Below are positions 2,867 to 35,660 of a DNA stretch of 64,000 bases, piece by piece (position 1 is the stretch's first letter; each line of letters opens with the position of its first letter). The notes under the pieces are model-generated. The model searched no databases. It was not told where the DNA came from and saw only the letters and a program-made list of their open reading frames with translations. The stretch is from assembly GCA_035404085.1 (NCBI GenBank), contig DAONGL010000001.1:135878-199877 (forward strand). Direction: 5' to 3'. The stretch is from Methanomassiliicoccales archaeon. GTDB lineage: Archaea > Thermoplasmatota > Thermoplasmata > Methanomassiliicoccales > UBA472. Made by a program: the position numbers and the translations under genes.

Positions 2867-3547
2867 TCACTTCCACTCCAGTACTGGAGCTGGCGCTTCC
2901 TCGCCTCCCGGGGTTATCTCGAACGGTATCCACCGGCCGGGTACCGACATGCCGCGCATGTGCCGCACCCTCAACACGCGATTGAGATCGTTATCGAAGC
3001 GCAGTTCGATGACCCCATCCGCCAACGCCACCAGGTGATTGAGGGCCTTCTCCTCGTGCACCCCGTCGAACACGGACACGATGGCCGTCCCGAACTCGCT
3101 CCGTATGCGGGAGGTGCTGATCTGGAAGAACTTGAGCACCACGCTGGCCTGGTTGTACAGGAATAGCGTGGAAAGGGTATGCATGAATACCCTCAGAGGA
3201 CGCTTCTCCTCAGCGAATATGTTGGCCACGTTGAACATTATTCCTTCCAGGTCATGAATGCGGCGCACCTTGGTACGGTCCCCGGCCTCGCGATCGTCCC
3301 CGTTACCGAGCAGGCTGGAGTGATAATCGATCACGTATAGCCCTTTTCCCAGGAGGTCCAACGAGATGCCGAAGCGCTCCATGGATGTAAACAGGTCCCT
3401 AGGCAGCAGGTCCATGGTCACGAAGACCACCGGTTCGCCCTGGTCCAGGTATTCCTTGACCATGCTCATCTGGAACTCCAACAACCCTACGCCCGGTGTT
3501 CCCAAAATGAGCACCGAGCACATCTGCGGAAAATTGGTCCTGAACAT
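2867..3547 (-). CDS. Single-domain KaiC/RecA-superfamily protein with degenerate Walker A
   Basis: KaiC-like layout with 'VLILGTPGVGLLEF' where GxxGxGKT is expected (Lys/Thr replaced by Leu/Leu). 'VFMHTLSTL' sits in the Walker B position. It lies 10 nt downstream of the 501-aa KaiC/GvpD-like gene. Confidence 0.65.
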   Translation of the reverse strand: MFRTNFPQMCSVLILGTPGVGLLEFQMSMVKEYLDQGEPVVFVTMDLLPRDLFTSMERFGISLDLLGKGLYVIDYHSSLLGNGDDREAGDRTKVRRIHDLEGIMFNVANIFAEEKRPLRVFMHTLSTLFLYNQASVVLKFFQISTSRIRSEFGTAIVSVFDGVHEEKALNHLVALADGVIELRFDNDLNRVLRVRHMRGMSVPGRWIPFEITPGGEEAPAPVLEWK

Positions 3548-3557
3548 TCAAAGCACC

Positions 3558-5063
3558 TCACACCAGCGGGGTCAGGGACACGCACCCTCCCTGGGGTCTT
3601 TCCTCTACCGTCAATGCGAAGCACTCGGTGAACGGTTTACTGCCGTAGAGCACCACCGTCCCGCCTATCCTCTCCACCTTCAAGTGCACCGTGGCCAGAT
3701 CGGCCAGCCTTGCCGTGGATCGGGATGTCGGGGAGGTCAGTCCCACGAACGACCCTCCATTGCGCTTGACCGCGGCGAGATGATCGATCAGTCCCTCCAT
3801 GACCTCTCCGCCGTAAATCGATTCCAGGGAATCGAACCCCATCAGCGAGAGGAACGGTTGTGAGCTGCCATTCAGAGCGTAAACGATGTTCTTCCACTTC
3901 AGGTCGTCCGATACCCTGGTCCCTTCGACGGCCATGACGTAACGTCCGCTTCCCTGGTCCATCTGGGAGGCCGGTTCCACGACCCGAACCGTCTTCTCCA
4001 TCTCTCCGTCCGTCAAAACGTTCTGCAGCATCCCCCTGGCTCCCGCCCCGCTCTCCTTTCGCAAAGGCACCCACAGCACCCCGCGCCCGGCCTTGGCAAA
4101 GCTGGAGACCAACGACCTCTCCAATATCCCACTGACCAACGGGGGAAGCCCGCCGCCCAGCTCGATGAGCGTCACCGCTCCCGGGAAGAGGCCCCCAGTC
4201 ATTTCGTCCAGATCGGTTATCCCGAACGAGAGATGGCCCGCAGGGTCCTCCGGTCTGGCGAACTCATTGCTCATCCCGCTGCCCCGGTCCCACTTGGCTC
4301 CGAAGCAGCGGAACTTGCCGCCCTTCAAACTGAAAAGATAGAGGGGCTGCTGAACCTCCACCCCTCGCAGCTTCATAAGGTCCATCTCTCGCACCAATCG
4401 CCGCTCGTGCTCCATCCGCGTGCACTCCACGACCCCGTCTCCCAGGTAATCGAGCATGTGGTCGTTGTTCTCCAGGACGAAGAGCAGGTTCGCCCCCTGG
4501 CCTTCCACCAGGTCGCGTTGCAGGGCGATCATCAGTTCCCGGCACTGTAGTTCGTATCGGTCTGCCAGAGCGTCGATGCTGTCGATGATGACCAGCACCC
4601 GTTCCCCGGCCTTCTCCACCAGGTCATACAGGTTCTCCAGGTCGGGCATGGTCCGGCCGATGGAGACGGTCATCTCCTTCCGGGACACCAACAGATCGCC
4701 GGAGCCCACGCCCTTCAATCGTCCGAAGCCGGAACGGCGACGGGTACTGGTCTCCTCCCTGGTTATCAAACGGTCGGCAAGCCAGGGAAACTGCCTTAGC
4801 AGGGACGAATCGGATACCCTGGTCGAAAGATAGTGTGCCCTCTGCCGGTCCTTGAACTCCTCCGCCACCTGCAGAACGAAGGTGGTCTTCCCGGTCCCGG
4901 CGTTCCCCCGCACGATGAGGGAATGCCCTCCCGGGTTCTCGAGGAATCTCGTGATCTCATTGGGCAACGCGGAATTGGAGGGGTCGGGCATCTGCTGAAC
5001 CTTGTCCGCTTGACCCCTCTCGATTTTTAAACAACTTTCCTCCCCATTATCATTTATCGCCAA
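3558..5063 (-). CDS. Two-domain KaiC/GvpD-like RecA-superfamily ATPase
   Basis: Domain 1 has an intact P-loop, 'SLIVRGNAGTGKTTFVLQ', and Walker B 'VLVIIDSIDAL'. Domain 2, 'GITDLDEMTGGLFPGAVTLIELGGGLPPLV', has the KaiC/RadA-like entry motif but no GKT. Confidence 0.7.
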   Translation of the reverse strand: MAINDNGEESCLKIERGQADKVQQMPDPSNSALPNEITRFLENPGGHSLIVRGNAGTGKTTFVLQVAEEFKDRQRAHYLSTRVSDSSLLRQFPWLADRLITREETSTRRRSGFGRLKGVGSGDLLVSRKEMTVSIGRTMPDLENLYDLVEKAGERVLVIIDSIDALADRYELQCRELMIALQRDLVEGQGANLLFVLENNDHMLDYLGDGVVECTRMEHERRLVREMDLMKLRGVEVQQPLYLFSLKGGKFRCFGAKWDRGSGMSNEFARPEDPAGHLSFGITDLDEMTGGLFPGAVTLIELGGGLPPLVSGILERSLVSSFAKAGRGVLWVPLRKESGAGARGMLQNVLTDGEMEKTVRVVEPASQMDQGSGRYVMAVEGTRVSDDLKWKNIVYALNGSSQPFLSLMGFDSLESIYGGEVMEGLIDHLAAVKRNGGSFVGLTSPTSRSTARLADLATVHLKVERIGGTVVLYGSKPFTECFALTVEERPQGGCVSLTPLV

Positions 5064-6317: not shown

Positions 6318-8113
6318 TGTGCGGCATTGTCGGATACTCGGGTCACCGCCGGGCCTCGGAAGTGTTGATGGAGGGTCTGAAACGATTGGAGTACCGGGGG
6401 TACGATTCCGCCGGGGTCGCCATAGTTGAGGATGGGCGCCTGGTGCTATTGAAGAAGCAGGGGGAGCTGGAGGTCCTGCAGAAGGCCCTTCCCAAGTTCG
6501 AAGGTCGCACGGGGATAGGCCATACCAGATGGGCCACCTGCGGTCGGCCGTCCGATAGGAACGCTCACCCTTTCGTGTCCTGCGATGGAAAGCTGGCCAT
6601 CGTTCACAACGGGATCATCGAGAACTACACCGCTCTGCGGGAACGGCTCGAATCGGAAGGCCACCACTTCACCTCCGAGACGGACACCGAGGTGGTCGTC
6701 CATCTCATGGAGACCCATTACACCGGCGATCTGCGCCAGGCACTTGCGGACACCACCCGGGAGATTCAGGGGACATATGCCATCGCGGCGGTCCTGGAGG
6801 GCAGCCTAGAGGTCGCCGCCGCCCGTAAGGAGAACCCTCTGGTGGTCGGACTGGGGGTCAAGGAGAACTTCCTGGCCTCTGATGTCACGGCGCTACTCAG
6901 TTACACCAACCAGGTACTGTACATCAGGGACGGGGAGACGGTCTCTCTAACTCCTAAGGGGGTAACGGTCTTCGATCAGGACGGAGCGATAGTGAAAAGG
7001 GAGACCTCCGTGGTGACCTGGTCCGCCGAGGACGCTCAGAAGGGCGGCTTCGAGCACTTCATGCTCAAGGAGATATTCGAAGGGCCGAACGCCATTCACA
7101 ACACTCTGCTGGGGGCATTGGACCTCATCGAGAATGGGGATGTGATACCCAGGATGGACTTTAGTTCCGTGAAGCTAGTGGCCTGCGGCTCCTCGTTCCA
7201 CGCCGCCATGGTCGGCAAGTACGCCATGGAGGAGTTCGCCGGGATACCCACCACGCTGGAGCTGGCGTCCGAATACCGTTATTCACCAGGGACCAGGGAG
7301 GCACCTTTGGTCATACTCATCACGCAGAGCGGGGAGACCGCGGACACGCTGGCCGCGGCAAGGGAGGCCAGGCGCCGGGGGTGCCGCACTTTGGCGGTCA
7401 CGAACGTGGTCGGTTCCACCATAACCAGGGAGGTCGACGAGGTCCTCTACACCAAGGCCGGCCCGGAGATCGGCGTGGCCGCGACCAAGACGTTCCTCAC
7501 CCAGCTTCTGGCCATGTACATGTTAGCCATACGAATAGGCTACGCCAATGGCACGTTGAGCCACGACGCCATGCGTAGCGCATTATCCTCCTTGCGCCAA
7601 TCATCCAACATGGTGCAGTCGGTGCTGAACCACATGCACGAGATCGAGGAAGCGAGCAAGATGATCGACGAATCCGAGCACTGCTTCTTCATCGGACGCA
7701 ACATCAACTACCCGACGATGTTGGAGGGCGCCCTGAAACTGAAGGAGATATCGTACATCCATGCCGAGGGATTCGCCGCCGGTGAGCTGAAGCATGGCCC
7801 ACTGGCGCTATTGGATTCTAAGACCCCCGTGATAGCCGTAGCCATCAAAGGCGACCACACCTACGAGAAGATGTTGGCGAACATATCGGAGGTGGCCGCG
7901 CGGGACAGTCCGGTGCTCGGTGTGGGTCTGGAGGGCGATACCGACCTGTCCAGGTTATGCGAGCGCATGATATACGTCCCGCCGGTAAAACCGGTCTTCT
8001 CTCCCATACCGGTGACGGTCGCGCTCCAGGCGCTGTCGTACTACGTGGCCAAACGTCGCGGCTGCTCCATAGACAAGCCCAAGAACCTAGCCAAGAGCGT
8101 CACCGTGGAGTGA
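6317..8113 (+). CDS. glmS: Glutamine--fructose-6-phosphate aminotransferase
   Basis: Starts 'MCGIVGY' (Ntn Cys2), has SIS-domain 'LITQSGETADTL', and ends '...KSVTVE'. The track ORF 5753-8113 carries a spurious N-terminal extension. Confidence 0.95.
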   Translation: MCGIVGYSGHRRASEVLMEGLKRLEYRGYDSAGVAIVEDGRLVLLKKQGELEVLQKALPKFEGRTGIGHTRWATCGRPSDRNAHPFVSCDGKLAIVHNGIIENYTALRERLESEGHHFTSETDTEVVVHLMETHYTGDLRQALADTTREIQGTYAIAAVLEGSLEVAAARKENPLVVGLGVKENFLASDVTALLSYTNQVLYIRDGETVSLTPKGVTVFDQDGAIVKRETSVVTWSAEDAQKGGFEHFMLKEIFEGPNAIHNTLLGALDLIENGDVIPRMDFSSVKLVACGSSFHAAMVGKYAMEEFAGIPTTLELASEYRYSPGTREAPLVILITQSGETADTLAAAREARRRGCRTLAVTNVVGSTITREVDEVLYTKAGPEIGVAATKTFLTQLLAMYMLAIRIGYANGTLSHDAMRSALSSLRQSSNMVQSVLNHMHEIEEASKMIDESEHCFFIGRNINYPTMLEGALKLKEISYIHAEGFAAGELKHGPLALLDSKTPVIAVAIKGDHTYEKMLANISEVAARDSPVLGVGLEGDTDLSRLCERMIYVPPVKPVFSPIPVTVALQALSYYVAKRRGCSIDKPKNLAKSVTVE

Positions 8114-9103
8114 TCACACCAGCTTCTCTGGGCAGGACTCTCGGCGGGAGCAGCTGGCGCACTTGCCCGGTCGGTTGTGGTTGCGGTGCACCTCTCCGCT
8201 GCGCATCAGCTTGCGCATCTCATCCACCTTTTCTAAAAGGATCTTCTCCAGCTCGGCGTCGAACTCGATCTCATGTTCCTCGCTCCCATATAGCAGAAGA
8301 CCGTACGGAGGGCGCTTGCCCGACGATTCCGCGATGAGCAGGCAATAGGTCGCCACCTGCAATATATGCGAGAACAACGGTCCTTTCGGGGTTCGTCCGG
8401 TCTTGAGGTCTCCCGGGATCAATTGACCGTCGATCTCCAGCACGAAGTCCGGTCGGCCGCTGAGCCCGTACCTCTCCGAGAGATACAACTGCGAATCGTC
8501 CGTTCCAACGTACTTGATCTCCCCCTCCAGGCCTTCGGCGTTCATACGCTCCCCGACCTTCTGGGAGGCGGAGAGCGACAAGTAAAGGGCGAGCGAGGCG
8601 GCAATCAGCCAGACCAGCGCCAAGGCCTCCAGTATCATGGAGACCATGGGGTCGGCCTGGATGAGGTTGCCGATGTTCATAGCCACCACCATGAGGACCA
8701 GTCCAACCATCGCCACTATCTGCAATCTTCGAACTTGGATGATGGCCCTCCCTCGCAGGGCTGAAAGATAGAGCATGGCGATCACCGCCAGGAACCAGAT
8801 GATGCTCAGCAGGGGCAATATCCATCCAATGTTCACACTGCCGGCGGCCCGCATCAAGGAGATGCCGGTGACGGCCAGCACGGTCGCCACCAGCGAGAAG
8901 AGGAAGACCATCCTTTCCCAGTCCCAGGCCTTCTGTTCTATGTTCCGGATTCGGCGATATTCATCGGCCTTGTCACGGTGTGCGGCATCCCCCCTCTCCT
9001 GCTCGGGGGTGCTGGACTGGGACTTCCGTCCCAACCACCAGCTGAGCGGGCAGTACCCATACCGCTCTAAATCGCTGGCGGAGATGACCTCGGTCCGGTC
9101 CAT
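8114..9103 (-). CDS. Cas4/DUF83-like PD-(D/E)XK nuclease with four inserted transmembrane segments
   Basis: N-terminus 'ISASDLERYGYCPLSWWL'. Core motifs 'GRPDF', 'PGDLKTG' and 'QVATY'. C-terminus 'CASCSRRESC' (C-x2-C-x5-C). Four hydrophobic 20-25-aa segments occupy aa ~65-177. Confidence 0.65.
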   Translation of the reverse strand: MDRTEVISASDLERYGYCPLSWWLGRKSQSSTPEQERGDAAHRDKADEYRRIRNIEQKAWDWERMVFLFSLVATVLAVTGISLMRAAGSVNIGWILPLLSIIWFLAVIAMLYLSALRGRAIIQVRRLQIVAMVGLVLMVVAMNIGNLIQADPMVSMILEALALVWLIAASLALYLSLSASQKVGERMNAEGLEGEIKYVGTDDSQLYLSERYGLSGRPDFVLEIDGQLIPGDLKTGRTPKGPLFSHILQVATYCLLIAESSGKRPPYGLLLYGSEEHEIEFDAELEKILLEKVDEMRKLMRSGEVHRNHNRPGKCASCSRRESCPEKLV

Positions 9104-9124
9104 GGACTAAAATAATGATGATAG

Positions 9125-9133
9125 ATATTTAAG
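9125..9133 (-). promoter_or_regulatory. TATA-like box upstream of the Cas4-like gene (TTAAATAT on minus strand)
   Basis: Located in the AT-rich 45-nt gap between the two nuclease genes, centred ~26 nt upstream of the ATG at 9103. This is consistent with a leaderless transcript. Confidence 0.35.
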
Positions 9134-9148
9134 GTGTTCAGCTTCCGT

Positions 9149-9910
9149 TCACTCTAGGTAACGGCAGTTCAGCCCGGTCAGGGAAGCGTCCGTTATATAG
9201 ATGCCGTCCTCCATGGTTATCTCGTCCACGAAACCGAACCAGTAGACGACCAGGCCTTGACCGAACAGCTCCACGTAAGGCGAGAGCTGCTTCTTGGTGT
9301 TCTTGTTGACCTCCACGAAATCGCCGAAGGAGGCCTTGGACTCTATCCAGTTGATCTTCCAACCGTTGACCATGATGGGTTTGTCCAGCAAGGCGTCAGG
9401 GGTCTTGGTGAAACTTCCGCGCAGATCGTTCTCCGTGCGGTAGGTTATGCCCTGGCTGTCCAGCCAGTCCTGAAGGTTCTTCTCGCCCCATTTCCCGCGC
9501 AATTTCTGCTTCAGGTCCCCCTCGGGAGAGTTGATGATGTCAGCGGCGGTTATCTCCTCGATCTGGCGGCGCAGCTCCTTGTCCGTTATGGCCTCCGGGT
9601 TGCGTACCAAGGCCCAGTACTGCTTGTTGGACCGTCCAGACTCATTGAAAAGGACCAGGCCGGTGAGCACGGGAGGAAATTCGTAGCGGCGCGCTATCTC
9701 CAACAAGGTCTCCCCGCTTCGCCAGGACCTGAGCAACCTTGGCGCGTCCCGCTTCACCTTATAATGCCTCTTCATGGACTCCCTCTGGGTCCTCTGGGAG
9801 TATATTACGGTCAGAAGCTCGCGGTCCAGGTTCAGTTCCTTGGAGAGAACATCGATATCAGAGGGTTCCTTCAATCGGTCGTACAGGTATTTGAAATCCT
9901 CATTCTTCAT
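9149..9910 (-). CDS. TPD-motif / CDIN1 (C15orf41)-like PD-(D/E)XK nuclease family protein
   Basis: 'SFTKTPDALLDKPIMVNGWKINWIESKASFG' matches the TPD...(D/E)xK family signature as I remember it. Start is taken at MKNEDF (9910); the track ORF extends to 9985. Confidence 0.6.
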   Translation of the reverse strand: MKNEDFKYLYDRLKEPSDIDVLSKELNLDRELLTVIYSQRTQRESMKRHYKVKRDAPRLLRSWRSGETLLEIARRYEFPPVLTGLVLFNESGRSNKQYWALVRNPEAITDKELRRQIEEITAADIINSPEGDLKQKLRGKWGEKNLQDWLDSQGITYRTENDLRGSFTKTPDALLDKPIMVNGWKINWIESKASFGDFVEVNKNTKKQLSPYVELFGQGLVVYWFGFVDEITMEDGIYITDASLTGLNCRYLE

Positions 9911-10026
9911 CCATTTCAACCTTGACGCCTTTCGTAGTCGAAGTATGATATATAATTCTTGTGAGTTGGCACGGACCAAAGGCACAGGACCATTGGCGGT
10001 CAGATAGATTGAAATTTCCGAATGCC

Positions 10027-10680
10027 ATGTATGAAATCCAGTGGGATGGATCCCTTTGGAGGATTAAGATGGACCTGAACAATTTCCTGGCATCCGAGAA
10101 CGGCCCGCCCTGGCTTCCAGCCAGTGTCGCCGAGGCCCGCAAGCTGGTCTACATCGGACAGCTCTTCGCCCTGATATTCGCATTGATAGCCCTGGTGATA
10201 GGCGTGCTGAACATCATATCCGGCACATTATACACAGGGGCTTACTCCTTGGTAGCCGCCGCCCTGGGCATGGTGCTCCTGTTCATGCTGAAGAAACAGG
10301 TCTTCGCCAACCTCGATCAGGGAAGGTTCAAGCAGGCCAGCAACTCCCTTCTCATCTGGACGGTCGTGGGCTTCTTCGTCTGGGTCATTCCCGGTCTCAT
10401 ATTGCTCATCGGGTTCCTGAAGCTACAGGGCGTCTTCCAGCTGCAGTACCAGGACTACCAGGCCCAGCAGTATCAGGTGGCGCAGGAGCCTCAGGCCCAG
10501 CAGGCACCGCCCGCGCAGCCGGCTCCGGCTCAGCCCGCCCCCGTCGCTCCTGAGCAGCCCGCTCCCGCTCCGGCGGAGCACAAGGAAAAGAAGGTTGAGA
10601 TGGCCAAGTGCCGCAAGTGCGGTGTCAACTATCCGGCCTTCATGCACAACTGCCCGAACTGCAACGAGCCCCGGCACTAG
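10027..10680 (+). CDS. Membrane protein with Q/P/A-rich linker and C-terminal zinc ribbon
   Basis: Three to four hydrophobic helices, then a 'QAQQAPPAQPAPAQPAPVAPEQPAPAPA' linker, then 'CRKCGVNYPAFMHNCPNCN'. Start is taken at the first ATG (MYEIQW); the track ORF starts at GTG 9961. Confidence 0.55.
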   Translation: MYEIQWDGSLWRIKMDLNNFLASENGPPWLPASVAEARKLVYIGQLFALIFALIALVIGVLNIISGTLYTGAYSLVAAALGMVLLFMLKKQVFANLDQGRFKQASNSLLIWTVVGFFVWVIPGLILLIGFLKLQGVFQLQYQDYQAQQYQVAQEPQAQQAPPAQPAPAQPAPVAPEQPAPAPAEHKEKKVEMAKCRKCGVNYPAFMHNCPNCNEPRH

Positions 10681-29922: not shown

Positions 29923-30434
29923 TCGATCACCTCAACGTTGAACTTCTGTTTGATGAACTCCATGGCCTCAGGCCTGGTCATGCGGTGGGTGTGGGGTATG
30001 GAGCGGCGCATCACGCGGCGCCTGGCCACACGCTTCCCGGGCCTCTGGATGGACACGCTGATGTCCATGCCGAAGATCCCGATCTCAGGGTCGTACTTCA
30101 TCCCGGAGAAGTCGGTATAGTCCGGCACTCCGAAGGACAGGTTGCCTTCGCGGTCAAAGGAGTAGGAGGCGATGCGGTTCTCACGGATGGTGAACGCCCT
30201 CTTCAGGAAATCATCGGCCTTCGCTCCCCTAAGGGTGACGACGCATCCGATGGGCTGTCCCTCGCGGATGCCCCAGTCGCGGTTGGTCACCTTGGATACG
30301 GTCTGCTTGGACTTCTGTCCCGTGACCATCTCGATGACCTTCTGTGCCTTGATCAGGCGGTCACCGGACTCGCCAACTCCCATGTTGACGACTACCTTCT
30401 CGATGCGCGGCAGGCGCATGATGTTCTCGCTCAT
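29919..30434 (-). CDS. rpl5: 50S ribosomal protein uL5
   Basis: '[22 protein letters not shown]'. Confidence 0.95.
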
Positions 30435-31141
30435 ACCGCTCTCACCTCGGGTAGTACGACCTCAGGGGTCTTGTTGCCGATCACGAACACGTTGTCCTTC
30501 ACGGTCAGCTTGCCGTTCTTGAAGCGGACCAGGTTGGGGGCGGTGGAGCGCTCCTCGATCTGCTCGTCCACCACGTTGATCTGTCCGGCGTTGGCGCCGC
30601 TGACGATCATGGCCACGTTGCCCTGGACCAGCTTGAAGGCCTCTATGACCTTCTGGGTCGGCAGCTCGATCTTCAGTACGTCGCCGGTCTTGTAGATGTC
30701 CGATTCGACCAACATGTTGCGCCCGTCGTGCAGGTTCAACTGTAGGCGGCCGCCGGAAACGTAGGTCTTGTTCTCGATGCGGCACAGCTTCCACTTGGCG
30801 CGGTCCTCGGTTATCTCCACTAGTATGAACTTGCCGCGGTCGTCCAACAGCATGCGGTAGTGCTTGCCGTTGGCGGGGATGCTGACGACGTCCATCAGAC
30901 CCACCGGGAACTTCTCCTCGGTTATGACCTTGCCGTCCACCAGTACCTTCTTCGAGGAAAGTACTTTCTTGGCCTCGGCGGCGGTGTCCACTACCTTCAG
31001 CATGTCCCTCAGGACCACGCTCAAAGGCATGCATCCGTCCAGCGAGTGCGGACCGGGGTTGGGGCTGGTCACCCATACATGGCTCTTCCTGGTCACCGGC
31101 CAGCTCTTCGGTGCATTAAGTCTCTTCAGATCTTGGGTCAC
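30431..31141 (-). CDS. rps4e: 30S ribosomal protein eS4
   Basis: 'LKRLNAPKSWPVTRKSHVWVTSPNPGPH'. Confidence 0.95.
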   Translation of the reverse strand: MTQDLKRLNAPKSWPVTRKSHVWVTSPNPGPHSLDGCMPLSVVLRDMLKVVDTAAEAKKVLSSKKVLVDGKVITEEKFPVGLMDVVSIPANGKHYRMLLDDRGKFILVEITEDRAKWKLCRIENKTYVSGGRLQLNLHDGRNMLVESDIYKTGDVLKIELPTQKVIEAFKLVQGNVAMIVSGANAGQINVVDEQIEERSTAPNLVRFKNGKLTVKDNVFVIGNKTPEVVLPEVRAV

Positions 31142-31509
31142 TGGGAACCCTCCTCATATTGCAGCTTCTGCTTACGGTAGTTGTCCTTCAGGTCCAACTT
31201 GGTAACGACCACGTTGGACGCGTGCACCGGCCGCTCGGTCATGGTGCCGTCGGCCTTGGCTATGGTGACGCCCTCCACGATCAGCTTGCCGTTGTGGGTA
31301 TCGACGCTGGTCACCTTGCCCTCGGAGCCGAGTATGTCCTCGTCCCCGCGGACCACCCTTACAGTGTCTCCCTTGACCACGCGTACGGTGCGGCGGCCCA
31401 GCTTCTTGATCAGCTCTTCGCTGAGGTGGGAGCCGACGCTCTTGTTGCGCACATGGTTGGGGGCGTTAAACAGCGCCTTCCTCTGCTTTCTTGCGTGCTT
31501 GCTCGTCAT
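31138..31509 (-). CDS. rpl24: 50S ribosomal protein uL24
   Basis: 'RKALFNAPNHVRNKSVGSHLS...VVKGDTVRVVRGD' (KOW motif). Confidence 0.95.
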   Translation of the reverse strand: MTSKHARKQRKALFNAPNHVRNKSVGSHLSEELIKKLGRRTVRVVKGDTVRVVRGDEDILGSEGKVTSVDTHNGKLIVEGVTIAKADGTMTERPVHASNVVVTKLDLKDNYRKQKLQYEEGSQ

Positions 31510-31519
31510 TTCCTACACC

Positions 31520-31918
31520 TCACACTATGGTCGATGCGGTGGCGGCTACGCGCGGCCAGCGCTCGGCGGCCTCTCTGGCCACCGGTCCCTTTATGTCGCT
31601 TCCCTTGGTCTCGCCCTCTTCGGTGGTTATGACCGCGGCGTTGTCCTCAAAGTGCACCATGGTGCCGTCCGCGCGGCGGAACGGCCTCCTCTGGCGAACG
31701 ATGATGGCGTAGACGACCTGTCTCCTCATTTCCGGAGTTCCCTTCTTTACGGAGGCGACGACTATATCGCCAACCGCGGCGGCCGGGCAGCGCCCGTGCA
31801 CACCGTGGTAGTTGGGGACGGCGATGACGCTGATGACCTTGGCGCCGGTGTTGTCCACTACGTCCAGGTGCGATCCGGTTATGATGCCCCTGGTCTGGTT
31901 ACCTGCCAATCCCTTCAT
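31520..31918 (-). CDS. rpl14: 50S ribosomal protein uL14
   Basis: '[20 protein letters not shown]'. Confidence 0.95.
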
Positions 31919-31922
31919 GTCC

Positions 31923-32249
31923 TCACCTCTTCTCCACGACGACGAAGGACACCGTCTTGCTCAAGGGGCGGCATTCCATGATGCGCACCTTGTCCCCGGC
32001 CGCTATCTCCAGGCAGGGGGGGTTGTGGGCGGTGTAGCGCCTCGTCCTCTTTTCGAATCGTTCGTACTTCTTGTCATATTTCAAGTAGTTCCTCTCGACC
32101 ACGGCGCTTCCGTTCATCTTGACGGATACTATGACGCCGTCAATGATCTGCCCCCGAACTGGGAGCTGCCCGTGGAATGGACAGTGCTTGTCCTCGCAGG
32201 TGGCCGAGGGGGCCTTGACATCAATGCCAATGTCTCTGACTTCGCTCAT
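31923..32249 (-). CDS. rps17: 30S ribosomal protein uS17
   Basis: '[28 protein letters not shown]'. Confidence 0.95.
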
Positions 32250-32253
32250 TAGA

Positions 32254-32514
32254 TCACCTAATTCTCTTGATCCTATCCTCTGGTCGATGCTGGATCTCGG
32301 ATCCTAGGACCCTGATCCTCTCGCCCTGGTATGTGAACACGAACTCATGGCCGGACTTGGGTATCCACCTCTCCCTGCCCTGGCAGGATATGGCAAACAT
32401 GTTCTTGGTCTCGTCCACCACCTTCCCGTGCAACAGGTGCCCGGGGCAGCTGGATTCCACCACCTCGATGTCCAGTCCTATGAATTCTTGTCTCATGAAA
32501 TCCCTCTGGTCCAT
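32254..32514 (-). CDS. rnp1: RNase P protein component 1 (Rpp29/Pop4)
   Basis: 'EFIGLDIEVVESSCPGHLLHGKVVDETKNMF', in the conserved slot between L29/SUI1 and S17. Start MDQRDF; the track ORF extension overlaps SUI1. Confidence 0.85.
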   Translation of the reverse strand: MDQRDFMRQEFIGLDIEVVESSCPGHLLHGKVVDETKNMFAISCQGRERWIPKSGHEFVFTYQGERIRVLGSEIQHRPEDRIKRIR

Positions 32515-32519
32515 GGCTC

Positions 32520-32819
32520 CTACCGAACCTCGGTCTTGAAGCCCATCTCTTCCAGGGTCTGAGCCACTTTCTTCTTGTGGTCGCCCTGGAGCTCGATCTT
32601 GCCTTCTTTGGCGGTGCCGCCGGCGGCGCACTTGTTCTTCAACTTGCGCGCCAGATCATCGATGTCTATGTCGGTGGAATCGATCCCATCGACCACGGTG
32701 ACGATCTTTCCGTAGCGCCGGCTGTCGGTGTAGATCCTAACGGACTGCTGTTCTCTGGCGATCTCCTCGCACATGCACAGCTCTTTAGGGAGCCCACATA
32801 CCGAGCAAATGTCGGCCAT
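32520..32819 (-). CDS. Translation initiation factor aIF1 (SUI1)
   Basis: N-terminal zinc knuckle 'CSVCGLPKELCMC', then 'VRIYTDSRRYGKIVTVVDGI' and 'KLKNKCAAGGTAKEGKIELQGDH'. Confidence 0.9.
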   Translation of the reverse strand: MADICSVCGLPKELCMCEEIAREQQSVRIYTDSRRYGKIVTVVDGIDSTDIDIDDLARKLKNKCAAGGTAKEGKIELQGDHKKKVAQTLEEMGFKTEVR

Positions 32820-33019
32820 TATTGTTCTTCCTCCTTCTGGACGGTTAGGATCCTGGCGATGTTGCTCCTTAAAGCCCTGATCTTCCCCGGGTTGTTGGGT
32901 GCCCCGCCCATGGCGGCGGCCCCCTTCTCGTGCATGAGCTCGTCCTGCAGCTCGCGGAGCTTGGCAGCGCGCTCATCCACGCTCATCTCTCGTATTTCAG
33001 AGGTCCTTAGTAATGCCAT
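32819..33019 (-). CDS. rpl29: 50S ribosomal protein uL29
   Basis: 'LRTSEIREMSVDERAAKLRELQDELM'. Confidence 0.93.
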   Translation of the reverse strand: MALLRTSEIREMSVDERAAKLRELQDELMHEKGAAAMGGAPNNPGKIRALRSNIARILTVQKEEEQ

Positions 33020-33745
33020 TTATTCGGTCACCTCCTTCTTGTCGCCCTCGGCCGGTGCTTCGTCCTCGGCCGGGTGCTCAGCGATGACCGACGCCTCCTC
33101 CAGTTTCTTCAGAAGGTCGACGAGGTCGGGGTTGGCCTGCATGGCCATCTCCATGGGCATGACGTCGATCTCGGCCGGGAGGTGTGCTCCGGGCTGCATG
33201 ATCTCGACCTGTACCCCGATTACCCCGGGCTTCAGCTTGGCCACGGCGAAACCGGTACCGATGAACAGGTTCCTGGTCTCACCGCAGTACTTGATCGATC
33301 CCTCTTTGAACTTCTCGGTGCGGTGCCTCTCTCCGGTCAGCTTGCCGGAGATGATTATAAGGCAACCGCGGGCGCCGGACTCCATTATGCGGCGGACGGT
33401 CGAGTGACCGGCCCGCCTGAAGTGCCAGCCGCGCTCCAGGGCGAAGGCCAACTTCTCCGCCATGATCTGGGCGTTTAGGTTGGGGTTCTCCACTTCCTGG
33501 ACCTCGATCTGGGGGTTGTCGTAGTGGAACTTGTCCTCGATGTCCTTGGTCAGGGTCTTGATGGCCGCTCCGCGGCGGCCGATGACTATGCCCGGGCGCT
33601 CGACGACCAGGGACACCCTGGTTCCCATGGGGGTCCTCTGAACTTCCACGCCTCCAAAGCCAGCGCGGTCTACGGTCCTCATCAGATGCTCCTTGAGGAG
33701 CACCCTCCTGATGTTCTCCTGTGTGAACTTCCTCTCGCTGGCCAT
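33020..33745 (-). CDS. rps3: 30S ribosomal protein uS3
   Basis: KH-domain region 'GFGGVEVQRTPMGTRVSLVVERPGIVIGRRG'. Confidence 0.95.
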   Translation of the reverse strand: MASERKFTQENIRRVLLKEHLMRTVDRAGFGGVEVQRTPMGTRVSLVVERPGIVIGRRGAAIKTLTKDIEDKFHYDNPQIEVQEVENPNLNAQIMAEKLAFALERGWHFRRAGHSTVRRIMESGARGCLIIISGKLTGERHRTEKFKEGSIKYCGETRNLFIGTGFAVAKLKPGVIGVQVEIMQPGAHLPAEIDVMPMEMAMQANPDLVDLLKKLEEASVIAEHPAEDEAPAEGDKKEVTE

Positions 33746-34192
33746 CTACTGAACCTCCTCTAATATGACCTCGATGTTGACCGTCTGTTGGTTCCAGGCG
33801 GTGCTGCGGCCATGCGCCCTCGGCATGTAGCCGGGGATGGTCCGTCCAAGGTGGGCGGAGACTATGCGCACGCGCATGTTGTCGGCATCCAGGCCCTTGT
33901 ACTCCGCGTTGCTCTTGGCGCTCTGCAGCACCCTGATGATGGCGGCTGCGGCCTTCTTCGGGAATCTTCCCGGTCCCACACCGGTCTTGTGCGCCACGCC
34001 GAAGTTGTGGCGGCGGATCGGCACCGGGCGGCGCAGTTCCACTACCTCTTCCAGCATTTGGATGGCGACATCGACCTTCTTGCCCCTTATCATGCGGCAG
34101 ATCTCTCTCGAGAACTTGGGTGAGATGGGCAGTTCCTTTGCGATAGCCTTGGACGTGGTGTCCGGATCGGCTTCTGATGTGTATCCTACCAT
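33746..34192 (-). CDS. rpl22: 50S ribosomal protein uL22
   Basis: 'AKELPISPKFSREICRMIRGKKVDVAIQMLE'. Confidence 0.95.
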   Translation of the reverse strand: MVGYTSEADPDTTSKAIAKELPISPKFSREICRMIRGKKVDVAIQMLEEVVELRRPVPIRRHNFGVAHKTGVGPGRFPKKAAAAIIRVLQSAKSNAEYKGLDADNMRVRIVSAHLGRTIPGYMPRAHGRSTAWNQQTVNIEVILEEVQ

Positions 34193-34203
34193 TTTTTTTC
34201 ACC

Positions 34204-34665
34204 TCACTTCAGCGGCATGAACTTGGAGCCCCTGGTCGCACCGACGCCCGGACCGGAGTGCTTTACAGATCCCCTGGTCATGGCGAACTCGCCCAAGAAG
34301 TGCCCGATCATCTCGGGCTTTATCTCCACTTCTTTGAATTCCTTACCGTTATATACGGCCACGCGGCGTCCTACGAAGGACGGCACGATGGGTATGTCAC
34401 GGCGGTGCGTTCGCACCACTTCCTGCTCTCCATCCACGATCTTATCGTAGGTGGTCTTCTGCTCCTCGTTGAGTCCGCGGCGGAACGACCTTCTAACCCT
34501 AGACGGCAGGAGGTCGACCATTTCCTCGAAGGGCATCTCCAGGAGCTGCTCCATGGTGAATCCGCGGTAGGTGAACTCCTTCTTCCTACGGGCGGTCATC
34601 ATGCCCTTCTTCTTCCGCTGCTTCCTCCTCGAGGCCTTGGTACCAGTTAGCTTATCTTCAGCCAT
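34204..34665 (-). CDS. rps19: 30S ribosomal protein uS19
   Basis: 'VAVYNGKEFKEVEIKPEMIGHFLGEFAMTRG'. Confidence 0.95.
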   Translation of the reverse strand: MAEDKLTGTKASRRKQRKKKGMMTARRKKEFTYRGFTMEQLLEMPFEEMVDLLPSRVRRSFRRGLNEEQKTTYDKIVDGEQEVVRTHRRDIPIVPSFVGRRVAVYNGKEFKEVEIKPEMIGHFLGEFAMTRGSVKHSGPGVGATRGSKFMPLK

Positions 34666-34671
34666 CTAGAA

Positions 34672-35370
34672 TCACTTCCTCTTCTTTTGGGGGGAAAGTC
34701 TTCCTACCTTCCTTCCCGGCGGAGCGTTCCTCGAAACCGTGCTGGGCTTACCAACGTGCGGGTGACCTCCACCGCCGTGCGGGTGGTCGACGGCGTTCAT
34801 CGCCACTCCCTTCACCTTGAAGTAGGCCTTGCTCTTGCTGCGGTAGGCGTGGAACTTCTTTCCTGCCTTGGCGAAGGGCTTCTCGGAAGCCCCGCCGCCC
34901 GCTACGATCCCCACGCCGGCGCGGCAGCGGGGGTCGAAGTTCTTGAATGCCCCGGAGGGCAGTTGCACCAGGACGGTGTCGCCCTTGGTGACCACGGTGG
35001 CGTAGTTACCGGCGGTCCTTACGAACTTGCCGCCATCGCCAGGCCTGGCCTCCAGGTTGTAGATCAGGGTACCCTCGGGGATGTTGGCCAGGGGCATGAT
35101 GCTCCCGGGCGTCAGGCTCAGGGGGCCGTCCACTCTGATCTCTTGTCCGACCATCAGCCCTTCGACGGCGATGATCTTTTCCTTCTTACCGTCCTCGAAC
35201 TGGACCTCGGCCACCGGGCTGTTCCGGCCAGGGGCGTGTATTATGTCCGTTACCTTTCCGGTCTTGAGCTCGACGTACGGGTGCTTGATCTCTCCCACGT
35301 GCCTGTGGCTCGGGGAAGTATAGGTCATGGTCCCACGACCTCTTCTCTGTTGTCTCAGTTGTCTGCCCAT
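34672..35370 (-). CDS. rpl2: 50S ribosomal protein uL2
   Basis: 'GVAMNAVDHPHGGGGHPHVGKPSTVSR'. Confidence 0.96.
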   Translation of the reverse strand: MGRQLRQQRRGRGTMTYTSPSHRHVGEIKHPYVELKTGKVTDIIHAPGRNSPVAEVQFEDGKKEKIIAVEGLMVGQEIRVDGPLSLTPGSIMPLANIPEGTLIYNLEARPGDGGKFVRTAGNYATVVTKGDTVLVQLPSGAFKNFDPRCRAGVGIVAGGGASEKPFAKAGKKFHAYRSKSKAYFKVKGVAMNAVDHPHGGGGHPHVGKPSTVSRNAPPGRKVGRLSPQKKRK

Positions 35371-35381
35371 GTTCCCCCTCC

Positions 35382-35660
35382 TCAGAACACTCCGATCCTC
35401 ATGCCGATGTCCTCGGCAGAGTATCCTTCAGCCAATTTGAATATGGCGTGCTTGCCGTCCTTGGATATCTTGGTCCAGACCTTGTCCACCTTGACCTCGA
35501 AGTGCGTCTCGAAGGCGCTCTTGATCTCCGCCTTGCTGGCGAAGCGGTCCACGATGAACTCGATCTTGTTGCCATCCTTGAAATCCTGGGTAGGCGTGCC
35601 GGTCATGTAGTTCATGGTCTTTTCAGTCACGTACGGGTAAAGCAATACCTTCCTGGCCAT
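35382..35660 (-). CDS. rpl23: 50S ribosomal protein uL23
   Basis: 'MARKVLLYPYVTEKTMNYM'. Start is chosen just after the L4 stop. Confidence 0.92.
   Translation of the reverse strand: MARKVLLYPYVTEKTMNYMTGTPTQDFKDGNKIEFIVDRFASKAEIKSAFETHFEVKVDKVWTKISKDGKHAIFKLAEGYSAEDIGMRIGVF

Follow-up and report, generated by a model that had tools for sequence, protein, structure and literature searches.

Predicted transmembrane hairpins inside the nuclease fold of a solo-Cas4 family of Thermoplasmatota

How can the fold of a Cas4-type nuclease be interrupted by membrane-spanning helices and still assemble, and what would such an enzyme do in the cell? These questions are raised by a gene at positions 8114 to 9103 (minus strand) of a 64,000-nucleotide stretch of a Methanomassiliicoccales archaeon genome (GenBank assembly GCA_035404085.1, contig DAONGL010000001.1), the whole of which is referred to here as the window. 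Cas4 proteins have been studied as soluble factors of CRISPR adaptation, and "solo" forms, for which several roles have been considered, are widespread. The original prediction, made from the letters of the window alone, had read the 329-residue product as a Cas4/RecB-type nuclease whose two halves are separated by four transmembrane (TM) helices. The membrane-integrated form described below appears to be new among known Cas4-family nucleases; solo-Cas4 as such is already known.

Translation of the minus strand yielded a complete 329-residue product in which each motif quoted in the original prediction was found at the residue it had given, with Cys18 in the context YGYCPLSWW. Four hydropathy peaks (1.97–2.56; Kyte-Doolittle, 19-residue windows; nt 8573–8911) were detected at aa 65–83, 95–113, 127–145, and 157–175, within the region where four hydrophobic segments had been proposed (aa ∼65–177). 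The corresponding 113-residue insert (aa 65–177) sits between the helix bearing His42 and the first core strand. A protein identical to this product is also encoded on Methanomassiliicoccales contigs. A gene-fusion artefact or frameshift was ruled out because the uninterrupted open reading frame (ORF) is conserved across hundreds of assemblies. The gene and its parts are as follows.

8114..9103, minus strand: complete gene of the membrane-integrated Cas4-family nuclease, 329 aa, with its stop codon at 8114-8116 (from the ORF list and translation)
8912..9103, minus strand: N-terminal nuclease half, aa 1-64, with Cys18 at nt 9050-9052 and His42 at 8978-8980
8756..8911, minus strand: TM hairpin unit 1, aa 65-116 (TM1, TM2, and a short outer loop), hydropathy peaks 2.33 and 2.56
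8726..8755, minus strand: loop 2, aa 117-126, RGRAIIQVRR, arginine-rich with 4 Lys + Arg (K+R), predicted to be cytoplasmic
8573..8725, minus strand: TM hairpin unit 2, aa 127-177 (TM3, TM4, and a DP outer loop), hydropathy peaks 2.26 and 2.23
8117..8572, minus strand: C-terminal nuclease half, aa 178-329, with the catalytic motifs and the Cys triad
8447-8449, minus strand: D219, in the C-terminal half, within GRPD219F
8402-8410, minus strand: D232-x-K234 (D232-L-K234), in the C-terminal half
8345-8359, minus strand: Q249-x3-Y253, in the C-terminal half
8132-8161, minus strand: C315-x2-C318-x5-C324, in the C-terminal half
Within the C-terminal half, minus strand: family-specific HRNH motif, aa 306-309, just ahead of the Cys triad

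Assignment of the two flanking halves to the Cas4/RecB group, as originally claimed, was borne out by profile hidden Markov models (HMMs), by a sequence search of solved structures, and by fold. On the 329-residue protein, Pfam family PF12705 (PDDEXK_1) scored 59.2 bits (E 8e-16; cut-off 22) and PF01930 (Cas_Cas4/DUF83) scored 33.4 bits (E 5.7e-8; cut-off 22.7), while the NCBIfam "equivalog" model TIGR00372 (cas4) reached 77.5 bits (E 1.1e-21; cut-off 65). The Cas_Cas4 and TIGR00372 alignments cover aa 209–325; upon deletion of the insert in silico, PDDEXK_1 aligned end to end (model positions 2–247 of 247). A profile built from 26 diverse family members matched the solved Cas4 chains 8D3L (3e-8), 4IC1, 4R5Q, and 7MI4 in a search of PDB sequences, and the N-terminal half aligned to residues 11 to 58 of type I-C Cas4 (8d3l). 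An AlphaFold2 model built on the same alignment (pLDDT 80.5, pTM 0.76) was confident in both soluble parts (pLDDT 92 for residues 11–20 and 89–98 for aa 181–300) and less so in the TM region (55–64). Foldseek comparison of the model with the PDB returned 8d3q_J (1.2e-5), 8d3l, 4ic1, 7mi5, MGME1, Dna2, ACE1, and AdnAB, all with probability 1.00. No credible family was obtained for the TM insert in a Pfam/NCBIfam scan of the full protein; HgcAB-like, DUF2663, and EPS_sugtrans matches fell far under their cut-offs and were taken as hydrophobic noise.

The protein exceeds the curated cut-offs and carries the full set of Cas4 features, i.e., the catalytic motifs (His, Asp, (D/E)xK, and QxxxY), the 1+3 cysteines, and a RecB-like fold, and it is thereby a member of the Cas4 family. 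C18, C315, C318, and C324, and likewise D219, are invariant in the unfiltered family alignments A1 and A2, and H42 is invariant in A1 and present in ≥90% of the rows of A2. Within a set of 304 family members, H42 is kept in 302, D/E232 in 302, K234 in 304, Q249 in 295, and Y253 in 303, with R307 and H309 each present in all 304; the cysteines (C18 included) and D219 were selection criteria for this set, so their conservation there is built in. By homology, C18 is the putative first cluster ligand and His42 the putative metal-ligand equivalent, and the four cysteines (1 + CxxCx5C) would form a [4Fe-4S] "staple." Conservation at these positions indicates that the nuclease is probably intact and catalytically active. 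Just before the Cys triad stands an HRNHxRxGKC motif (aa 306–324, window 8132–8188), of which the R-x-H also occurs in bacterial C-halves described below (R154, H156), and which is missing in the aligned region of type I-C Cas4. This motif may contact the cluster or DNA.

CRISPR-associated Cas4 proteins (SSO0001, 4IC1; Pcal_0546, 4R5Q; type I-C, 8D3L; and the Cas4-Cas1 fusion, 7MI4) are the best matches in both sequence and fold, with His, D, (D/E)xK, and QxxxY motifs and a C...CxxCx5C pattern in common. In contrast to these, the membrane Cas4 has no cas1, cas2, or array context, has the HRNH motif before its Cys triad, and has 177 residues between the His and the first Asp (His42–Asp219) as compared to 37 in SSO0001 (residue numbers from PMC13621843). 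A RecB-like fold is also common to MGME1, Dna2, and AddB-AdnAB (Foldseek E 1e-4 to 2e-3), which process 5′ ends or single-stranded DNA in repair and replication and of which Dna2 and AddB have the iron staple as well; these enzymes differ in being soluble or helicase-fused, and none has a membrane insert.

The insert is composed of repeated units. Hairpin 1 (TM1–TM2) is homologous to hairpin 2 (TM3–TM4; hhalign probability 98.3%, E 1.2e-14, 58 columns), the two aligning in register on an "ER" start, one Trp, and one Tyr; TM composition may have raised this score, but the register is convincing. A hairpin HMM, which scored 59.1 bits on hairpin unit 2, was detected once in 29 proteins, twice in 209, and four times in 52, and never three times. 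All of 1.84 billion cluster representatives were searched for relatives (73 clusters at E <1e-30), and the architecture with its TM insert is kept in hundreds of homologues. These proteins hold 2, 4, or 8 TM helices at the identical insertion site: among 303 complete members, two TM helices were counted in 26, four in 218, and eight in 55, giving an even number in 299, and the four members with odd counts look like threshold misses. Since the insert is built of whole hairpins, the number of TM helices is always even, as would be required to bring the chain back to the side of the membrane from which it left. A TM hairpin module inside a catalytic fold, in a series of one, two, and four copies and with a natural two-subunit split (below), is an unusual instance of protein architecture evolution.

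Charge distribution was used to orient the insert. Across the 218 four-TM proteins, the mean number of K+R residues was 4.1 in loop 2 and 3.3 to 3.6 in the 15-residue flanks of the insert, while loops 1 and 3 averaged 0.7 and 0.5, respectively. Under the positive-inside rule, this bias would place both nuclease halves and loop 2 in the cytoplasm, which is the location that an Fe-S enzyme would need. The original argument that an even helix count keeps both halves on one side of the membrane is thus in agreement with the TM counts and with the charge bias.

Secondary structure of the AlphaFold2 model comprises helices at residues 33 to 82, 90 to 116, 120 to 145, and 152 to 189. The first of these is a single helix that contains both His42 and TM1, with His42 ∼23 residues ahead of TM1, and the last carries TM4 unbroken into the nuclease core. 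Because helices 33–82 and 152–189 are continuous in the predicted secondary structure, the nuclease would be held by two rigid helical stalks directly under the membrane. The TM segments themselves are poorly conserved, with a single Trp nearly invariant across the diverse 4-TM set, a pattern that suggests an anchor rather than a pore; a channel or transporter was rejected as the leading idea for the insert on the same observation.

Independent support for reassembly of the two halves at the membrane came from bacteria, which encode what appears to be the same enzyme as two polypeptides, an N-half followed by a TM helix and a TM helix followed by a C-half. Below E ∼1e-27, the representative search returned many proteins of 170 to 180 aa that consist of one N-terminal TM helix and the C-terminal Cas4 half only, the one named cluster among them being a Chloroflexota metagenome-assembled genome (MAG). 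Directly upstream of the C-half gene lies a small ORF (∼80–120 aa) that encodes the N-terminal Cas4 half, with the motif IRASEIGxFxYCxRAWWY ... G..FH, and then one C-terminal TM helix. This ORF is called in some assemblies and uncalled in others, and the C-half gene (∼175 aa) starts a few nucleotides after it. In metagenome loci gathered by a pattern scan built on an alignment of bacterial C-halves (A5), the small N-half ORF was found by motif scan in 48 of the 68 loci with enough upstream sequence, and by tblastn in 63 of 80. Compared with the archaeal family, the bacterial C-half aligned with an hhalign probability of 100% (E 9e-48) and the N-half with a probability of 82% (E 1e-5), in register on the Cys and His. 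As predicted from these alignments, the bacterial pair corresponds to a 2-TM hairpin form that has been severed within the outer loop, and it extends the class to bacteria. Examples are given below, and further pairs occur among loci L098–L177.

L096:3744-3992 and 4001-4528: split pair, N-half and C-half genes
L094:3625-3990 and 4001-4516: split pair, N-half and C-half genes

The split Cas4 of Chloroflexota and relatives thus has both halves homologous to those of the archaeal protein, and both would be anchored on the same side of the membrane. It differs in consisting of two polypeptides with one TM helix each, and in having ssb, translin, nadK, and recN as neighbors instead of TPD (a gene described below) and glmS; its database annotation is only "Dna2/Cas4 domain-containing protein." The gene order of the bacterial cluster is ssb, translin-like, cas4N, cas4C, nadK, a gene for a 176-aa protein, and recN. 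In tblastn searches of the 2.5-kb flanks of the 80 loci L098–L177, NadK was found in 62, RecN in 39, a translin-like protein in 33, and SSB in 23. This recurrent cluster could be functional or could reflect mere synteny within a lineage. The two-subunit form also offers a ready-made split-enzyme system.

In a scan of one genome per species, 505 stretches were found to encode relatives of the membrane Cas4. The best 80 of these 505 stretches belong to Methanomassiliicoccales or are otherwise named Thermoplasmata, Thermoplasmatota, or "Methanobacteriota archaeon"; the 2-TM form is that of Candidatus Poseidoniia (Marine Group II), and the 8-TM form was found in Thermoplasmata, on contigs of 2.5 to 5 Mb. 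The window itself is core chromosome, with a ribosomal protein/SecY operon, FtsZ, HdrA/Mvh-like genes, glmS/glmU, and PolB. No CRISPR array was detected in the 64-kb window by Tandem Repeats Finder, and no Cas family was detected among genes within 10 kb or among 40 larger ORFs at 20 to 64 kb, ORFs of <110 aa (the size of cas2) being left out. The originally noted absence of cas1 and of an array from the window holds within that scope, and neither cas genes nor arrays were seen in ∼95 related archaeal loci, so that the arrangement characteristic of an adaptation Cas4, encoded with cas1 and cas2 beside an array, is lacking in the window and in the related loci alike. A viral copy was likewise not found, as none of 97 pattern matches in IMG/VR encoded a relative, and a mobile-element origin was rejected on this basis.

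These properties are those of solo-Cas4 proteins (e.g., that of M. mazei; Hudaiberdiev et al. 2017), with which the membrane Cas4 shares the Cas4/DUF83 fold, catalytic motifs, and 1+3 cysteines, and which are likewise chromosomal, without cas neighbors, and vertical along archaeal lineages; here a syntenic block was found in 71 of 84 loci, at identities from 100% down to ∼40%. In contrast, solo-Cas4 proteins described so far are soluble, single-domain proteins of ∼170 to 220 aa, the M. mazei form being highly oligomeric according to PMC12501428, whereas the present protein has 329 aa and four predicted TM helices inside the domain. The word "transmembrane" is absent from the Cas4 phylogenomics paper (PMC5704561). 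No description of a membrane-embedded Cas4 was found in PMC5704561, PMC12501428, PMC13621843, and PMC4158269 or elsewhere in the full-text literature searched, the coverage of which is incomplete, so absence is not proven; to this extent the original statement that no such enzyme has been characterized stands.

To judge from sequence and gene order, the membrane Cas4 is a phylum-wide Thermoplasmatota family of chromosomal, vertically inherited solo-Cas4. It would represent a large solo-Cas4 clade defined by a testable physical constraint, a nuclease built into the membrane. Its members already carry one of three database names, "CRISPR-associated protein Cas4," "Dna2/Cas4 domain-containing protein," and "PD-(D/E)XK nuclease family protein"; no published role was found under any of them. 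The first of these labels is misleading, and with no CRISPR context at any locus examined, the entries that carry it are corrected here as a systematic misannotation.

A functional partner may be encoded by the gene directly upstream.

9149..9910, minus strand: co-oriented upstream gene for a predicted PD-(D/E)XK nuclease of the TPD / C15orf41 (CDIN1) family, 253 aa (Pfam TPD, E 1.2e-43)
9104..9148, minus strand: 45-nt spacer that separates the TPD and nuclease genes, with an AT-rich TTAAATAT box at nt 9125-9132, 21 nt before the ATG

The TPD gene was called from 9910, and the mechanical ORF reaches a GTG at 9985. NCBI names the product "C15orf41 family protein"; phmmer found no match to it in PDB sequences, and the named relatives among its top 120 are Methanomassiliicoccales or "Euryarchaeota" MAGs. 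In 71 of the 84 archaeal loci L001–L084, the membrane Cas4 gene lies directly after the TPD gene on the same strand, and in this block it converges on glmS. The TPD protein is a possible partner of the membrane Cas4 in Methanomassiliicoccales, and through this CDIN1-like neighbor the activity of a human disease gene could be approached from the prokaryotic side.

Taken as a mechanism, these features would work as follows. The chain would leave the soluble fold after the His42 helix, cross the membrane four times as two tandem 2-TM hairpins, and re-enter the cytoplasm to build the β-sheet core of the PD-(D/E)XK nuclease, so that both cytoplasmic halves reassemble into one Cas4 domain. The continuous helices 33–82 and 152–189 would hold this domain rigidly at the inner face of the membrane, where, with the help of metal ions, it could cut or resect DNA ends or single strands arriving at the cell periphery. 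Membrane anchoring would keep a hazardous nuclease away from the bulk of the nucleoid, and in Methanomassiliicoccales the enzyme may cooperate with the upstream CDIN1-like (TPD) nuclease. DNA-processing domains tethered to the cytoplasmic membrane have analogs in FtsK/SpoIIIE, which has an N-terminal 4-TM anchor, and in the competence nucleases EndA and NucA. There is no homology to these proteins; their anchors are terminal and do not interrupt a catalytic fold, and for EndA and NucA the site of action is outside the cytoplasm.

The explanation as a whole, a cytoplasm-facing, membrane-anchored solo-Cas4 that processes DNA for repair or maintenance and not for CRISPR adaptation, is judged to be somewhat on the probable side. 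Its functional component, metal-dependent cutting of DNA ends or single strands at the cell periphery in repair or chromosome maintenance, is advanced more tentatively, as a plausible proposal that falls a little short of probable. Repair or maintenance is favored because of the housekeeping context and of the nuclease, SSB, and RecN neighbors, and because the evolution of solo-cas4 genes is vertical, as it is for ordinary genes of the cell (PMC5704561); a further reason is that overexpression of the M. mazei solo-Cas4 reportedly slows growth (PMC12501428). The analysis shows the family membership, the anatomy of the insert, the even number of TM helices, the charge bias, the phyletic spread, and the lack of cas context; cluster binding, catalysis, topology, substrate, the TPD partnership, and the biological role are inferred from these, and the value of the proposal lies in the testable questions that it poses.

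Several observations weigh against this explanation. The TM region of the model is of low confidence (pLDDT 55–64), and it fixes neither helix packing nor oligomeric state. glmS is as conserved as TPD at L001–L084, so the adjacency of TPD could be inherited gene order; TPD-cas4-glmS is therefore a synteny block and provides only moderate evidence for coupling. TPD was not found beside the 2-TM or 8-TM forms, nor in ∼12 of the 4-TM loci. The TTAAATAT box may serve the nuclease gene as an archaeal TATA box of its own, in which case the mRNA may be leaderless. The recN and ssb context was seen in a single group of related bacterial loci, the flanks of which are short, and the evidence does not decisively separate repair from defense.

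Defense is the main rival, although an unlikely one, and the alternatives that follow it are less likely still. In it, the anchored nuclease would degrade linear foreign DNA (injected viral, conjugated, or vesicle-borne) as ends reach the cytoplasmic face, in the manner of a stand-alone RecBCD/AddAB- or ACE1-type enzyme; that the nuclease acts on incoming or extruded DNA, as the original prediction suggested, is speculation. An active site predicted to lie close to the membrane would suit such a role, and other solo-Cas4 enzymes are defensive, with ACE1 structures among the Foldseek matches and a cyanobacterial Argonaute-Cas4 system reportedly an instance. The gene always has housekeeping neighbors (glmS/glmU, ribosomal proteins, tRNA modification enzymes, and H+-pyrophosphatase) and does not occur in defense islands, however, and its single-copy, syntenic, vertical inheritance is atypical of defense genes. 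There is also no component that would discriminate self from non-self. PADLOC matched the nuclease only to generic Cas4, DruK-like, and Cas1-fusion nuclease models, all via the shared domain, and gave no match for the TPD protein or for a divergent membrane-protein gene at 9961 to 10680; one of two ATPase-like genes 3 to 5 kb downstream matched candidate models only weakly (E 2.7e-5 and above). For solo-Cas4 in general, roles in "defense or repair" were proposed by Hudaiberdiev et al. (PMC5704561).

A role in DNA uptake or scavenging was suggested by one Thermoplasmata lineage (L058, L065, L078, and L082), in which the start of the membrane Cas4 gene overlaps the end of a gene for a secreted protein of 865 to 909 aa.

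L058:3414-6020: secreted-protein gene
L065:3269-5998: secreted-protein gene
L078:38-2635: secreted-protein gene
L082:620-3217: secreted-protein gene

The copies scanned, those of L058 and L078, contain two lamin-tail (LTD) domains, PLD-like (PLDc_2) domains, and one PKD domain, and those of L065 and L082 seem to be their equivalents, to judge from position and N-terminal sequence. Many extracellular nucleases have LTD domains, and the secreted protein may be an extracellular nuclease or phospholipase; in the uptake proposal, an extracellular nuclease would feed an import pathway for DNA, with the membrane Cas4 as its cytoplasmic end, trimming or degrading the incoming strand. This proposal is improbable, as the LTD-PLD neighbor occurs in one lineage only, whose four loci share wider synteny, and as lipids are an equally possible substrate of its PLD domain. 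At no locus is the nuclease linked to a gene for a channel, a pilus, or a ComEC-like protein, and with an insert so little conserved beyond one Trp, a pore is itself unlikely.

There is very little to recommend a genuine CRISPR adaptation role, implied by the pipeline name, in which the protein would serve in trans a cas1-cas2 module elsewhere in the genome: the TIGR00372 "equivalog" cut-off is exceeded and the closest solved relatives are adaptation Cas4s, but cas genes and arrays are missing from the window and from the ∼95 related archaeal loci, CRISPR-associated cas4 travels with the adaptation module (PMC5704561), and a rigid membrane tether would fit the geometry of Cas4-Cas1-Cas2 poorly. 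Equally remote is a non-catalytic role, with the Cas4 domain as a membrane-bound DNA tether or as a sensor of iron or, through the Fe-S cluster, of redox state; catalysis by some Cas4 proteins does not require that cluster, hinting at regulation (PMC12501428), and human CDIN1, a relative of the TPD product, has shown no nuclease activity in vitro (PMC7261414), but all catalytic residues are kept in 97 to 100% of the 304 members, a degree of conservation not expected of a pure tether.

Within DNA maintenance, a broader version of the repair explanation can be formulated, although it is a long shot. The membrane Cas4 would be an ancient, hitherto unrecognized prokaryotic DNA-maintenance device, fused in Thermoplasmatota (with one, two, or four hairpins) and split in bacteria, that couples end processing to the envelope, possibly together with an ancestor of CDIN1/C15orf41 in clearing membrane-trapped DNA. 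If so, such DNA might include chromosomal bridges at division, echoing the chromatin bridges associated with CDIN1 deficiency in humans, and the device would provide the first biochemical context for the CDIN1 family.

Several minor features of the loci were also recorded. The stop codons of the convergent glmS (plus strand) and membrane Cas4 (minus strand) genes form the palindrome TGATCA at window 8111 to 8116, with zero intergenic bases and therefore no space for an intervening terminator; in L001 and L003, too, the two genes abut end to end. Downstream of glmU lie two KaiC/GvpD-like P-loop ATPase genes (PF06745 and PF07088; window 2867–5063, minus strand), a pair that is conserved in this place in L001 and L003 as well, at ∼50% marker-gene identity. 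At L089:6001-7725, an 8-TM member adjoins an H+-pyrophosphatase gene, and a gene for a ubiquitin-conjugating E2 enzyme (UQ_con), unusual in archaea outside Asgard and Caldarchaeales, lies a few kilobases away. Finally, several long ORFs (236–307 aa) without a Pfam match run antisense to the ribosomal-protein operon (L3, L4 ... S8, L6) at window 29985 to 35610 (plus strand); in this GC-rich DNA they are probably spurious.

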